64,000 nt of DNA, taken from positions 5,918 to 69,917 of the forward strand of contig JBFGLT010000001.1 in assembly GCA_041576015.1 (NCBI GenBank). Direction: 5' to 3'. Below are positions 51,807-55,931 of the stretch, one piece after another. Below the pieces are notes generated by a model that worked only from the letters and a program-made list of their open reading frames with translations, had not been told where the DNA came from and did no database searches. The DNA comes from Acidimicrobiales bacterium (GTDB taxonomy: Bacteria > Actinomycetota > Acidimicrobiia > Acidimicrobiales > SZUA-35). A program made the translations under genes and the position numbers. Position 1 is the first letter of the stretch. Every line of letters starts with the position of its first letter.

Positions 51807-52180
51807 CGCCCCACCGGTCGGGCAGCGACCAGGTAGACCGGACGGACCGCGCGCACCATGCCGAGCGCTCGCGCCCTCCGGACGATCTCCTCGGGCGAGG
51901 AGGCGACCACGACATCGCGCTCGAGCAGGGCGATGTCATTCTCGAGCTGCCCAATCTCGGCTTCCAGCGCGTCGAGCTCGCTCTGGGTCTGCACCAGCTG
52001 CGCTTGCACGAGGGCGACGCCGAAGAACACGCCGACCAGGAGGGTCAGAGCGATGAAGAGCAGCCGCCGGCGCCGGGCGCGGCTGCGGAGCGCGACGAAG
52101 TCGATCAGGAACAGCGACGGGGCCGAGGCGGCGCGACCGCGCCCCGCCGGCCGGCGGCGGGCCGGTGACGTCGTACTCAT
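51803..52180 (-). CDS. ftsL: FtsL/FtsB-like septum formation initiator
   Basis: 125 aa with a basic N-terminus, one TM and a leucine-zipper-like coiled coil (LVQTQSELDALEAEIGQLENDIALLERD). Canonical position between rsmH and ftsI. Confidence 0.7.
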   Translation of the reverse strand: MSTTSPARRRPAGRGRAASAPSLFLIDFVALRSRARRRRLLFIALTLLVGVFFGVALVQAQLVQTQSELDALEAEIGQLENDIALLERDVVVASSPEEIVRRARALGMVRAVRPVYLVAARPVGR

Positions 52181-53112
52181 GCCGCCTCCGGGCGATGCTG
52201 GATCGCCCGCAATCGGGCGCTTCGCGACCGCCGGTTGGCCTCCTGCTCGGCAGCGGTCGGCCGTCGGACCGCCGGGCGTAGGATCTCGAACGGCGGCGGG
52301 ACAGCCGGGACGGGAAGGCCGGGCGGGGTCGCGGAGGTCGTGTAGTGCCGGAAGACGCCCTTGACGATCCGGTCTTCACCCGAGTGATAGGTGATCACAG
52401 CGCCCCTCCCACCCGGAACCAGCAGGTCGAGCGCGGCGCGCAATGACGGCTCGAGAACCTCGAGCTCGTCGTTGACGGCGATGCGGATCGCTTGAAAGGT
52501 TCGCTTGGCGGGGTGACCGCCGCGGCGGCGGGCGGCGGCAGGGATGGCGGCCGCCGCGACCTCGGCCAGCTGGAGGGTCCGGTGGATCGGGCGGGCTGCC
52601 ACGATCGCCCGAGCGATCCGTTCGGCGTAGCGTTCGTCGCCACCCCGCCGGAGAGCCCGGGTCAACTGTGCCGCCGACCACGTGTTGACGACCTCGTCGG
52701 CGGTGAGCGCACTGGCCGGGTCCATTCGCATGTCGAGAGGGCCATCCCGCTGGAAGCTGAAGCCCCGCTGGGCTTGATCGAGTTGAGGCGAACTGACCCC
52801 CAGGTCGAACAGGAAGCCCGACAGGCGACCGACGCCTATCGAGCTCAACAGGTGGCCGAGCGCGTCGAACCGGCCGGCCAGGATCCGAACGCGACCGGCA
52901 AATCTGGCCAGGCGGTCCGCAGCAGCAGCCCGAGCTGCCGGATCCCGATCGATGCCGACGACATCGAGGTGAGGCGCCGCATCGAGAAGCAACTCTGCGT
53001 GTCCGCCGCCGCCCAGGGTCGCATCCAGCACCACACCGGGCGGCACCTGACCGAGGACCTCCACGACTTCTCCCGCCAGAACCGGCGCATGCACGAACCG
53101 CGAAGGCGTCAT
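52177..53112 (-). CDS. rsmH: 16S rRNA (cytosine1402-N4)-methyltransferase
   Basis: HAPVLAGEVVEVL, DATLGGGGHAELLL, DLGVSSPQLD and ITYHSGEDRIVK. Confidence 0.95.
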   Translation of the reverse strand: MTPSRFVHAPVLAGEVVEVLGQVPPGVVLDATLGGGGHAELLLDAAPHLDVVGIDRDPAARAAAADRLARFAGRVRILAGRFDALGHLLSSIGVGRLSGFLFDLGVSSPQLDQAQRGFSFQRDGPLDMRMDPASALTADEVVNTWSAAQLTRALRRGGDERYAERIARAIVAARPIHRTLQLAEVAAAAIPAAARRRGGHPAKRTFQAIRIAVNDELEVLEPSLRAALDLLVPGGRGAVITYHSGEDRIVKGVFRHYTTSATPPGLPVPAVPPPFEILRPAVRRPTAAEQEANRRSRSARLRAIQHRPEAA

Positions 53113-53147
53113 GAAAACGTGCCGGTGTCACCCAAGCTCCGGTTCGG

Positions 53148-53270
53148 CCATCGGTTGCCCCTCGGATGACGGACGTACGTCAGGATGTCTCCCTGAGCGC
53201 ACTTGAGGGGTAACGGGCGGAGTTGTGGGGCAGAAGTACCCTTCCCCGACATCCGAGAAGCAACCGATGA
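53148..53270 (-). promoter_or_regulatory. Candidate structured cis-RNA element in the mraZ-rsmH spacer (possibly the actinobacterial mraW-type leader motif)
   Basis: Arms 53250..53269 and 53149..53168 are reverse complements except for 2 central positions. These become two G-U pairs only on the minus (transcribed) strand. The result is a continuous 20-21 bp helix enclosing 81 nt with further hairpins. Confidence 0.45.
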
Positions 53271-53347
53271 ACGAACGCCTTCCTAGGCTCTACCGAACTC
53301 CTTTCCTGATCGTTGCCGCCTGAGGGTCGAGAGGTGGGTCGGCATGC

Positions 53348-53773
53348 CTAGAGGCCCATCCGCTCCAGTGCGGCGCTCACGTTGGCATTGGCCTGATCGG
53401 TCCCGTGCATCTGGTGGAACAGGTCGCGCGGCCAGATCTCGATGCGGTTCAGGGCGCCGGACAGCACGACCGGCTGGCCGAGTCGAAAGCCCTCGAGCAG
53501 GATTCGGTTGATCGTGATGCGCCCGGCCGAGTCGATCCTGGCCCGCTGGGTCTCGCCGGTCAGCTTGCGGAACGTCACACCGTCGATCACGCCCTCCTGA
53601 CGGTGGTTGACCCAGTCGGCGGAGACGTCCAGGTAGCCGGCCTCGGACCAGACACCGAGCCGCTCGCCCATGCGGACGACGTACCCCAGCGAGCCGAGCT
53701 GCTCCCGGAAGTCCGGTGGGAGTACGACGCGACCTTTGTCGTCCAGCGTGTGCTCGTACTGGCCAACGAACAA
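53348..53773 (-). CDS. mraZ: Transcriptional regulator MraZ
   Basis: Two SpoVT/AbrB-type repeats: FVGQYEHTLDDKGRVVLP and DSAGRITINRILLE. The proposed TTG start at 53773 matches the usual MFxGxxxHxxDxKGR N-terminus. The track ORF extends to 53878 through the operator region. Confidence 0.85.
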   Translation of the reverse strand: MFVGQYEHTLDDKGRVVLPPDFREQLGSLGYVVRMGERLGVWSEAGYLDVSADWVNHRQEGVIDGVTFRKLTGETQRARIDSAGRITINRILLEGFRLGQPVVLSGALNRIEIWPRDLFHQMHGTDQANANVSAALERMGL

Positions 53774-53841: not shown

Positions 53842-53908
53842 GTGTGGCGCCGTGGGACTCTCCCCCACTTGTCCCCACCGTAACCCACTACGCCCCACTT
53901 GTCCACAC
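53842..53908 (-). promoter_or_regulatory. Array of 10-bp-phased GTGGGN boxes (putative MraZ operator / dcw promoter region)
   Basis: On the minus strand there are five boxes with exact 10-nt period: GTGTGG(53908)-ACAA-GTGGGG-CGTA-GTGGGT-TACG-GTGGGG-ACAA-GTGGGG(53863). Two inverted boxes lie on the plus strand: GTGTGG 53842..47 and GTGGGA 53852..57. The array sits 70-135 nt upstream of the mraZ start. Confidence 0.7.
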
Positions 53909-53957: not shown

Positions 53958-54626
53958 GTGCTACCGGGGAGAGGGCCGTGGTGGGAGGTCGTGACCACGC
54001 GCGGGACGGCGGCTTCGCTCCACGAACGGGCGCTTCCCGACCCCCCGAGACGATCGGCCTGGGTCCACGCCGTCACCGGTCCGGCGCTCGTGCTCGGATC
54101 CTCCCAGTCCGAACGCCAGGTGTCGACGTTCGATGTACGGCGTGACGGCATCGAGGTCTGCCGGCGACGCAGCGGTGGCGGTGCGGTCCTGGTGTCCCCC
54201 GGCGACACCTGGATCGACGTGCTCGTCGGACGGGACGATCCGCTCTGGAGCGACGATGTGACGGTCGCGTTCGGGTGGCTCGGTCAGGTCTGGCAGCGGA
54301 CCCTCGCTGCGGTCGGAATCGACGAGACCATCGTGCACTCGGGTCCGCTCCGGAACCGGCGGGCCGGCGGGGTGGTGTGTTTCGCCGGCACCGGTCCCGG
54401 CGAGGTCGTCGGTCCGGATCAGACGAAGCTGGTCGGGATGTCGCAGCGACGGACTCGCTCGATCGCTCGCTTCCAGACCATGGCTCCCTCGCGGCAGCCG
54501 CTGGCGGACACCCTGCGCTACCTCGAACCGGCGGCCGTCTCGGGGATCGACCCGGACACCGAGGTCGGCGTCACCGTCGATGCGGCTGTTTTGACCACCG
54601 CCTTTCTCGCCGAGCTCCACCGCTGA
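53958..54626 (+). CDS. Biotin/lipoate A/B protein ligase family (LplA/LipB-like) protein
   Basis: CRRRSGGGAVLV (RRxSGGGAV motif) and TKLVGMSQRRTR (conserved Lys-x-x-G-x-[AS]-Q). The start is uncertain (GTG at 53958 or 53991). The track ORF from 53670 runs through the mraZ operator. Confidence 0.55.
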   Translation: MLPGRGPWWEVVTTRGTAASLHERALPDPPRRSAWVHAVTGPALVLGSSQSERQVSTFDVRRDGIEVCRRRSGGGAVLVSPGDTWIDVLVGRDDPLWSDDVTVAFGWLGQVWQRTLAAVGIDETIVHSGPLRNRRAGGVVCFAGTGPGEVVGPDQTKLVGMSQRRTRSIARFQTMAPSRQPLADTLRYLEPAAVSGIDPDTEVGVTVDAAVLTTAFLAELHR

Positions 54627-54683
54627 CCGGCACAACAGGCCACCGACTTCTGCGAACTTGACCGCGCGGTCTAGTCTTGGGTC

Positions 54684-55931
54684 ATGCAGCCGACCTATCC
54701 ACCCGAAGCCGCCGTGTTCCGCGAAAAGGTCCAGGCGTTTCTCGCCGAACACCTCCCGACCGGCTGGGAAGGGATCGGGGCACTTACCGAGGACGAGGCG
54801 ACGGCCTTCAGCCTCGAGTGGCGGGAGACCCTGCGGGATCACCAGTTCCTGGCGCCCACCTGGCCAACCGAGTACGGCGGCGCCGGTTTGACCGCCCTGG
54901 AGTCGGTGATCCTGGCCGAGGAGTTCTCCAAGGCCGGAGTCCCGACGGGGGGTCCCAACGACGTCTTCGGCATTCAGATGGTCGGCAACACGATCCTCGA
55001 GTGGGGCACCGAGGAGCAGAAGCACTACTTCTTGCCCCGGATCATCGGCGGCGAGGACCTCTGGTGCCAGGGGTACTCGGAGCCCAATGCCGGATCCGAT
55101 CTCGGCAACCTCGGCTGCCGGGCGATGCTCGACGGTGACGAGTGGCTGATCAACGGTCAGAAGATCTGGACCTCGGCCGGTCACCTCGCCAACATGATCT
55201 TCGTCCTGGCCCGTACCGACACCGAGGCGGCCAAGCATCGCGGCATCACCTTCTTGTTGGTACCGATGGACCAACCCGGTGTCGAGGTCCGCCCGATCCG
55301 GATGATCTCCGGGCAGGCCGAGGTCAACGAGGTGTTCTTCTCCGATGCGCGCTGCCCGGCCGCCAACGTGGTCGGCGAGGTCAACGGCGGCTGGGGCGTC
55401 GCGATGACGCTGCTCGGCTACGAGCGGGGCGAGGCGGCGGCGACCACCCCGGTGGCGTTTCGGATCGAACTTGACCGTCTCCTCGAGCTGGCGCGCACCA
55501 GGGGCCGGGCCGACGAGCCGGCGATCCGGCAGCGGCTGGCATGGTGTCACTCCAAGGTCGAGATCATGCGGTATCTCGGCATGCGCACCCTGACCGACTT
55601 CCTCAGCGGCGCCCACCCCGGGCCGGAGGGATCGATCTTCAAGCTGTATTGGAGCGAGTACCACCGCACGGTCACAGAACTGGCGCTCGACATCCTGGGG
55701 GCCGATGCCCTCTCGATCGAGGGCAAGTTGCCCTCTTCGGCGTTCTCGACCGACACACCCGGCGCACCGAACGAGTCCGGGTCATGGATCGGTACCTTCT
55801 TGAACGCTCGAGCGGGAACGATCTACGCCGGCACGTCGGAGATCCAGCGAAACATCCTGGGCGAGATGGTCCTCGGACTTCCCAAGGAACCCCGGTCGGA
55901 CCGCGGTCCGTGGTCGGCGATCCCCAGGTAG
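54684..55931 (+). CDS. Acyl-CoA dehydrogenase family protein
   Basis: 415 aa with QGYSEPNAGSDLGNL and TIYAGTSEIQRNILGE. Confidence 0.9.
   Translation: MQPTYPPEAAVFREKVQAFLAEHLPTGWEGIGALTEDEATAFSLEWRETLRDHQFLAPTWPTEYGGAGLTALESVILAEEFSKAGVPTGGPNDVFGIQMVGNTILEWGTEEQKHYFLPRIIGGEDLWCQGYSEPNAGSDLGNLGCRAMLDGDEWLINGQKIWTSAGHLANMIFVLARTDTEAAKHRGITFLLVPMDQPGVEVRPIRMISGQAEVNEVFFSDARCPAANVVGEVNGGWGVAMTLLGYERGEAAATTPVAFRIELDRLLELARTRGRADEPAIRQRLAWCHSKVEIMRYLGMRTLTDFLSGAHPGPEGSIFKLYWSEYHRTVTELALDILGADALSIEGKLPSSAFSTDTPGAPNESGSWIGTFLNARAGTIYAGTSEIQRNILGEMVLGLPKEPRSDRGPWSAIPR

Follow-up and report, generated by a model that had tools for sequence, protein, structure and literature searches.

It is a long-standing puzzle why mraZ and rsmH (mraW) open the dcw operon, which is otherwise devoted to the cell wall and to division. 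In Actinomycetales the DNA right upstream of rsmH encodes a structured RNA, the mraW motif (RF01746), which was described by Weinberg et al. in 2010 with its status as a switch left open and marked '?' (PMC2864571), and which still had no known function in 2017 (PMC5640933). In Corynebacterium glutamicum the 5' untranslated region (UTR) observed for mraW starts inside this motif (PMC3890552). The subject of the present report is an RNA element found at the same position in a 64,000-nucleotide (nt) stretch of DNA from an Acidimicrobiales bacterium (GenBank assembly GCA_041576015.1, contig JBFGLT010000001.1, positions 5,918 to 69,917), referred to throughout as the window. The element lies on the minus strand between mraZ and rsmH, at 53142-53276, and belongs to a new RNA family that is restricted to Acidimicrobiia among the genomes sampled and is not contained in Rfam 15. 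The mraW position now has a second RNA family, and a much better supported one: it comprises about 90 sequences, its five helices covary, and its core is conserved in the manner of rRNA.

Other kinds of leader also bear comparison with this element. ErmC and KsgA, both rRNA methyltransferases, and many ribosomal proteins repress the mRNAs that encode them by way of rRNA-like sites, and the leader in these systems copies the rRNA site that the gene product recognizes. The rpsO-pnp and rnc leaders are processed by RNase III and contain long duplexes. Within the dcw cluster itself, a long structured RNA, UpsM, is reported to be attached to the 5' part of the operon in the alphaproteobacterium Rhodobacter sphaeroides (PMC5089854); UpsM lies upstream of mraZ and is unrelated in sequence (no Rfam match in the window), whereas the element described here lies between mraZ and rsmH. 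The search of the literature met the mraW motif as an Rfam annotation only, and found neither an Acidimicrobiia element nor autoregulation by RsmH.

Fold and covariation of the leader RNA

The dcw sense strand of the window is the minus strand, on which mraZ is followed by a 235-nt spacer, by rsmH and by overlapping dcw open reading frames (ORFs). An original prediction, made from the letters of the sequence, had drawn attention to the length of this spacer and to a helix of 20-21 base pairs (bp) within it, which encloses 81 nt and pairs fully on the transcribed strand only. The spacer is indeed delimited by the mraZ stop codon at 53348-53350 and the rsmH ATG at 53112, and the helix, called P1 here, can be read directly from the sequence. 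In the sense RNA, 53270-53250 (UCAUCGGUUGCUUCUCGGAUG) pairs with 53168-53148 (CAUCCGAGGGGCAACCGAUGG) over 21 uninterrupted bp, three of which are U-G (two central wobbles and one terminal pair), and the segment enclosed is 81 nt long as stated. After a 1x1 mismatch, an outer extension adds 5 bp more (53276-53272 with 53146-53142), so that the 5' strand of P1 takes up 53250-53276 and the 3' strand 53142-53168. The 3' strand holds a run of G and an AUG (53151-53149), which in the window opens a mere 7-codon ORF.

The helix is more than chance. The longest uninterrupted helix in the spacer measures 21 bp in the sense RNA versus 12 bp in the antisense RNA, and the sense helix exceeds that of every shuffled spacer, the longest helices in 300 dinucleotide-preserving shuffles having 7-16 bp. 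The minimum free energy (MFE) of the 142-nt element is -70.9 kcal/mol for the sense RNA (z = -5.41) and -66.4 kcal/mol for the antisense RNA (z = -3.93).

The whole leader is about 135 nt long, with its 3' end 29 nt before the rsmH ATG. Its MFE fold is a three-way junction of P1, a short P2 and the hairpins P3 and P4, and the leader is matched in the sense orientation by two covariance models described below, R1 (157.4 bits) and R2 (93 bits). The core inside P1 (53170-53248) is made up of P2 (CGGG/UCCG), P3 and P4. In P3 (53205-53244) the stem GA-GGGUA/UUACC-UC joins 53244-53237 to 53212-53205 around a 24-nt loop at 53236-53213, while P4 (53175-53202) has the form GUGCG-C-UCAGGG/UCCUGA-CGUAC, with its loop inside GAGACAU. 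Single-sequence folds of the homologues agree on this architecture, with a P1 that runs continuously for 26-30 bp, a three-way junction, a P3 with a C-rich loop of 13-24 nt, and a two-part P4 with the loop GAGAMAU.

Inside P1 the original prediction fared less well. The hairpin GGGGAAG/CUUCUGCCCC that it placed there is not a conserved fold: it is possible in the window's clade only, its sequence is absent from other clades, and the comparative data instead pair GAAGGGUA with UUACCCCUC, as P3, around a large loop. A palindrome that it reported in the enclosed segment (GACGTACGTC) is present. As a candidate DNA site, however, the palindrome contained in P4 (GACGUACGUC) was rejected, since it is the 3' strand of that hairpin and changes elsewhere by compensatory substitutions.

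The comparative data were assembled by several routes. Among species-representative genomes no protein exceeds 56-57% identity to the window's RsmH, the best matches being in metagenome-assembled genomes (MAGs) of Acidimicrobiia. Closer relatives were reached through MraZ (88%, 72-66% and 49% identity), and the contigs fetched in this way provided 13 orthologous spacers. All 13 contain the same element, with a closing helix of 20-33 bp and a core of about 80 nt. Within the window's clade this core is 95-100% identical to that of the window, as against 41-52% identity at the third codon positions of mraZ. Covariance model R1, built from the window's clade, finds matches directly upstream of rsmH in more distant Acidimicrobiia (L002 at 73.9 bits; L001, L004 and L006 at about 58; L003 at 56; L005 at 52), and common to the homologues that it found is a hairpin GGAAG...CUUCC, or an equivalent, with a loop containing (A)CUCCGCCC(G). 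Shorter variants of the leader occur in L033 (2398-2498), L007 (2410-2517) and L015 (2369-2501), and an AT-rich variant in L008 (about 2272-2422). All four keep the long P1 and a P3 hairpin with UCCGCCC, P4 being missing or replaced, and such variants could mark the minimal functional unit.

A scan of metagenomes with a pattern taken from the two conserved loops yielded at least 120 stretches, of which 80 became loci, and no fewer than 80 metagenome contigs carry the element. Model R2 was built from a MAFFT alignment (A4) that comprised 80 full-length sequences. Among 80 loci fetched through RsmH, R2 matches only those of Acidimicrobiia, with no match in mraW-bearing Actinomycetes, in Firmicutes or in other phyla. 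Every locus with enough flanking DNA has mraZ upstream and rsmH immediately downstream; the element was never found away from the mraZ-rsmH position, and it is present as a single copy in the 64-kb window. Every genome-derived carrier with a class-level name is a MAG of Acidimicrobiia, as are the closest relatives of RsmH and MraZ, and the titles of the MAG and metagenome records place carriers in soil, freshwater and marine samples.

These sequences show extensive covariation. Standard pairs occupy 89% of cells in A4, versus 37-46% when the partners are slid by 1-3 columns, and 91% versus 37-50% in A5, a model-fitted alignment of 93 sequences that leans towards its model. Overall, 40-42 of the 48 pairs are changed on both sides in some of the 80-93 sequences; the figures for P1 are 26 of 30 pairs in A4 and 27 of 30 in A5, and all five helices show double changes in A5. 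None of 500 shuffles of either alignment reached the observed covariation measures. In the homologues, 93% of the P1 cells are paired. The stem of P3 recurs with other sequences across the family (GAUGG/CCAUC, GGUUG/CAACC and GGUCG/UGGCC, for example), and P4 carries compensatory changes in L094 (CCAGG/CCUGG) and L003 (GUCUG/CAGAC). Within the window's clade alone, such changes are seen at five pairs of the closing helix and at one pair of P4. In short, the two arms noted in the original prediction are conserved in orthologous spacers and covary there.

The pairing of the arms was also predicted to differ between the strands, in the way that selection on a sense-strand RNA would produce, and the homologues bear this out. 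In the window's clade, one-sided C/U changes opposite G keep the pairing on the sense strand only. Among the P1 cells of the 80 homologues, G-U and U-G combinations outnumber A-C and C-A by 254 to 54 on the sense strand (4.7:1), with G-U exceeding A-C by 45 to 7 in the window's clade. Antisense model scores are always far lower than sense scores (157 versus 40 bits for R1, 93 versus 29 bits for R2). The excess of G-U, the covariation and the low antisense scores therefore identify a structured RNA read from the dcw sense strand, and it is nearly certain that this RNA is functional.

The same evidence bears on the idea that the arms form a DNA-level inverted repeat, be it a protein operator, a cruciform or the ends of something like a miniature inverted-repeat transposable element (MITE). 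Read as DNA, the arms do make up a 31-nt inverted repeat that is 84% complementary. Against this, the compensatory substitutions in the arms preserve pairing rather than sequence, G-U is preferred 4.7:1 in the sense orientation, and covariation extends to the inner hairpins. Each genome window has one copy, always at the same locus, without the dispersed copies of a MITE. Because strand asymmetry, covariation and the single fixed locus all contradict it, a repeat acting at the level of DNA can hardly be the explanation.

Relation to the mraW motif

Whether the element is itself the mraW motif had been left open in the original prediction. A scan of the whole window with Rfam 15 at gathering thresholds found nothing (the gathering score of RF01746 is 50 bits), a permissive scan of 53000-53500 (E <= 10) returned no RF01746 match and noise only, such as mir-609 at 18.6 bits, and RF01746 had no match at E <= 10 in nine Acidimicrobiia loci. 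As positive controls, the Actinomycetes loci L024, L028, L032, L053 and L060 scored 52.9-72.5 bits with the same model. In the reverse direction, R1 and R2 matched no Actinomycetes locus. With the controls matching and the window not, the Rfam comparison settles the matter in favor of a different RNA.

That said, the two RNAs are alike in more than their location. Each is a structured RNA right upstream of mraW/rsmH in the dcw cluster of Actinomycetota, with a C-rich apical loop on a long stem and a role presumed to be cis-regulatory. They differ in that the mraW motif is a single hairpin of about 107 nt with the loop CA(C)CUUCCCCGG, whereas the element is a three-way junction with a second hairpin and the loop CCCC..ACUCCGCCCG; the range of the former is Actinomycetales and that of the latter Acidimicrobiia. 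Because the defining features tested (a match to the model, the single hairpin with its loop, and the Actinomycetales range) are absent, the element is not a member of RF01746; it is an uncatalogued counterpart at the same position.

It could still be asked whether the element is a very divergent member of the mraW family with the same function. In favor of this are the shared genomic position in sister classes of one phylum, the long stem capped in both by a C-rich loop, and the short Acidimicrobiia variants in L033 and L007, which are nearly one long hairpin. This is improbable in view of the failure of RF01746 to match the window or the nine Acidimicrobiia loci even at E <= 10 when it reaches 53-73 bits on five Actinomycetes controls, of the failure of R1 and R2 to match any Actinomycetes locus, and of the differences in architecture and loop sequence.

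The mraZ-rsmH spacers of some other Actinomycetota are longer still. In L054, L080 (Nocardioides), L055, L065 and L072 they measure 398-526 nt and match neither the Rfam mraW model nor R1 or R2, and these long spacers may hide further undescribed leader variants.

The P3 loop, the rsmH start and candidate functions

An invariant part of the element is unpaired. The sequence ACUCCGCCCG in the P3 loop (53223-53214) does not vary within the window's clade or across L001-L007, and every homologue reached through proteins, a route on which the RNA sequence was not used, retains its core UCCGCCC; L008, L015 and L033 each differ at one or two outer bases, the first, second or last of the 10-mer. This loop sequence matches positions 1396-1405 of 16S rRNA, which in E. 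coli rrsH read ACACCGCCCG, at 9 of 10 positions, with 53217 corresponding to C1402, the base that is N4-methylated by RsmH (PMC2831307). No other site in the whole E. coli 16S rRNA matches the 10-mer as well as position 1396, the next best reaching 7 of 10, and a 14-mer from the window's clade (ACUCCGCCCGUUAC) agrees with that site at 12 of 14 positions. Of random 10-mers, 0.09% (65% GC) to 0.4% (same composition) score 9 of 10 at a segment covering C1402. A single-stranded copy of the site is conceivable as a binding target, because cryo-electron microscopy of RsmI, the other C1402 enzyme, found nucleotides 1399-1408 pulled out of helix 44 (h44) of 16S rRNA and held as a single strand (PMC13037946).

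The complementarity of the P3 loop to its flanks shows no excess (mean longest match 4.4 nt, versus 4.7-4.9 nt in shuffles), a comparison on which pairing with upstream or downstream flanks was rejected, either to sequester a Shine-Dalgarno (SD) sequence or as a pseudoknot. Pairing with 16S rRNA was rejected as well, the duplex energies being no better than those of shuffled loops. In the absence of excess complementarity to either, the loop looks like the recognition site of a trans factor, protein or other. The P4 loop was compared with the 790 loop of 16S rRNA as a further possible mimic and gave no notable match.

The position of P1 relative to the rsmH start varies. In one subclade, comprising the five metagenome loci L099, L106, L123, L140 and L163, the only possible start of rsmH is the AUG inside the 3' strand of P1 (GGGGGG-CUGCUG-AUG), with an SD-like run of G 6 nt upstream of the AUG and the start lying 16 nt before the end of the R1 match. 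With the SD-like run and the start codon locked in a duplex, translation in these loci would depend on opening or cutting P1. A normal SD sequence that begins no more than about 10 nt from the end of P1 is seen in about 12 others. The distance from P1 to the start thus runs from overlap in the five loci, through 29 nt in the window, to about 140 nt in L090.

Some cis-regulatory or processing function for rsmH and the dcw genes is likely on these sequence comparisons. In the explanation proposed here, the leader would be transcribed with the dcw operon, and its targets in cis would be rsmH and the dcw genes that follow in translational coupling. A trans factor would read the invariant P3 loop, the leader serving as its operator, and this factor would most plausibly be RsmH: molecules not occupied by immature 30S subunits would attach to the target mimic and so reduce RsmH expression. 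P1 (26-30 bp), which in many lineages borders the rsmH ribosome-binding site and in five loci encloses it, would supply a repressive or RNase III-cleavable structure, through which binding of the factor could change translation or mRNA stability. As a whole, the explanation by a cis-acting leader read by a trans factor is put forward tentatively, at somewhat less than even confidence. The identification of the factor with RsmH, and with it the feedback model, is possible but rather doubtful. That the leader is a decoy for the decoding-site strand of 16S rRNA (1396-1405), which RsmH binds and perhaps methylates when immature 30S is lacking, is a speculation that we would at present call unlikely.

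Were the decoy model correct, the supply of ribosomes under construction would set the translation or stability of rsmH and of the coupled ftsL-ftsI-mur genes, a direct link at the RNA level from ribosome biogenesis to cell division, and it would also give a first lead on the function of mraW leaders. It would add a new case of autoregulation by an rRNA-modifying enzyme, one that couples ribosome maturation to the expression of division genes. The hypothesis that the invariant loop is the target sequence of RsmH is testable. Even if the mimicry is coincidental, RNA databases gain a clean new family, which is also a candidate for studies of protein binding or of RNase III.

Several observations weigh against the mechanism proposed. 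E. coli RsmH methylates 30S subunits and not naked 16S rRNA (PMC2831307), so a 10-nt mimic may not suffice for binding. Only one 10-mer underlies the mimicry, and of h44 only the 5' strand is copied; in the window, GACGUAC was considered as a mimic of the 3' strand and rejected, as it is not conserved in other clades. The counterpart loop of the mraW motif (CACCUUCCCCGG) matches the C1402 region at only 7 of 11 positions, and was likewise rejected as a mimic of it. Conservation of the loop in the 80 metagenome loci is partly a product of the search pattern, and since both the P3 and the P4 loop are invariant, their interactions cannot be tested by covariation. Finally, direct occlusion of the ribosome-binding site cannot be universal, given that the distance from P1 to the start varies from overlap to about 140 nt. 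Compared with the leaders of ribosomal proteins, ErmC and KsgA, then, the element resembles them in what may be a copy, at 9 of 10 bases, of the product's rRNA site and differs in that binding of RsmH is only proposed and that the E. coli enzyme needs an assembled 30S subunit. It differs further in copying one strand of the site and in often placing the mimic far from the ribosome-binding site.

The length of P1 suggests a simpler function, that of pure RNA processing or stability, in which P1 would be an RNase III site that separates mraZ from the rsmH-dcw message or unmasks the rsmH start, with the conserved core merely shaping the substrate and no feedback by RsmH. P1 has about the length expected of an RNase III substrate (26-30 bp) and is nearly free of bulges in all homologues; in the window its 21 + 5 bp provide the near-perfect duplex of at least about 20 bp that is a feature of such substrates. 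The start region locked in P1 in the five loci would need release, and the mraW 5'-UTR start inside the mraW motif of C. glutamicum is compatible with analogous processing of that leader (PMC3890552). Like leaders of the rpsO-pnp and rnc type, the element has a near-perfect duplex longer than 20 bp in a 5' or intercistronic position, and in some lineages the next gene has its start region within that duplex. A conserved three-way-junction core is lacking in those leaders, and cleavage of the element is putative. What processing leaves unexplained is the invariance of the 80-nt core, its 24-nt unpaired loop included, at saturated divergence, and the apparent copy of the RsmH target within that loop. 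It is a possible account of the element, though an unlikely one on present comparisons.

A riboswitch would explain the core in another way, with the three-way junction as an aptamer for a metabolite, such as S-adenosylmethionine (SAM), S-adenosylhomocysteine or a cell-wall precursor, that tunes rsmH and the dcw genes. A multi-stem junction with covarying helices and invariant unpaired nucleotides in a 5' leader is consistent with this, RsmH uses SAM, and the describers of the mraW motif left its switch status open, with a '?' (PMC2864571). It is nonetheless quite improbable: no expression platform was found, whether as a terminator-like site or as an alternative pairing of loop and flank, the 26-30 bp of P1 are far too stable for a ligand to switch, P1 and the start codon lie at varying distances from each other, and no Rfam riboswitch model matches. 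Moreover, L007, L015 and L033 have no P4 and yet keep P1 and the P3 loop, which would be unusual for an aptamer.

The resemblance of the long flanking helix to the processing stems of rRNA, and the conservation of the core at the level of rRNA or tRNA, raise yet another thought, that a stable small RNA is excised at P1, as in the processing of rRNA precursors, and acts in trans. There is a reported parallel in R. sphaeroides, where a dcw leader yields the small RNA UpsM (PMC5089854). For the present element this is very improbable, as it was never found apart from rsmH, part of P1 is the rsmH start region in one subclade, and no target complementarity was found, duplexes of the loop with 16S rRNA being no better than those of shuffled loops.

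Flanking sequences and neighboring genes

On the 5' side of P1 the comparison of spacers shows two further boxes (53298-53320), GGCGGCA at 53320-53314 and a perfect SD-like GAAAGGAG at 53305-53298, 22 nt from P1. Both are kept in most of the window's clade, but not in other clades or in L094, the most distant member of the clade. No start codon follows the SD-like sequence. A discontinuous ribosome-binding site, in which GAAAGGAG would be brought to the AUG by P1, was ruled out because about 52 nt would still separate the two, too long a spacing. GGAGUU has its complement, AACUCC, in the P3 loop, but the pairing is not maintained in all members.

Coding potential in the spacer was also considered. 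A conserved upstream ORF beginning at the AUG of P1 was rejected, that AUG being present in only 32 of 80 sequences, with ORFs from 5 to more than 500 codons. A 47-codon ORF (MSGKGTS...) at 53252-53109 on the minus strand crosses the RNA core, its terminal ATGA falling on the rsmH start, and a related 54-codon ORF stands in five distinct spacers (L082, L083/L084, L087, L090 and L091); the window, L085, L086, L089 and L092 either lack the long ORF or have its frame broken. The candidate small protein was set aside for these broken frames, for substitutions that track base pairing rather than codons, and for the lack of synonymous variation in the core. Because the frame is broken in other members of the clade and the substitutions follow the base pairing, the ORF through the core is probably not coding.

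Directly downstream of the element, rsmH (52177-53112, minus strand, ATG at 53112) encodes the 16S rRNA m4C1402 methyltransferase, with the Pfam domain Methyltransf_5 in its orthologues, and it shares its last 4 nt with the next dcw ORF. On the upstream side of the spacer, mraZ (53348-53773, minus strand) starts with a TTG at 53773. A scan for an internal sigma-70 promoter or an intrinsic terminator found none, actinobacterial promoters with a -10 element only lying outside its scope.

Farther upstream, at 53863-53908 of the minus strand, there are five GTGKGG direct repeats with an exact period of 10 nt (starts at 53908, 53898, 53888, 53878 and 53868), 90-135 nt upstream of the mraZ TTG. They resemble the TGGGN repeat operator bound by MraZ in E. 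coli, and by this analogy the region is probably the site of MraZ autoregulation and the promoter region of the operon. Beyond it, synteny is kept in the window's clade (window 53960-55931; L082-L093), with a lipoate-protein-ligase-like gene (PF21948) usually divergent upstream of mraZ. Genes for a thioredoxin and an acyl-CoA dehydrogenase are often present there as well, ordinary in themselves but useful as a marker of the clade.

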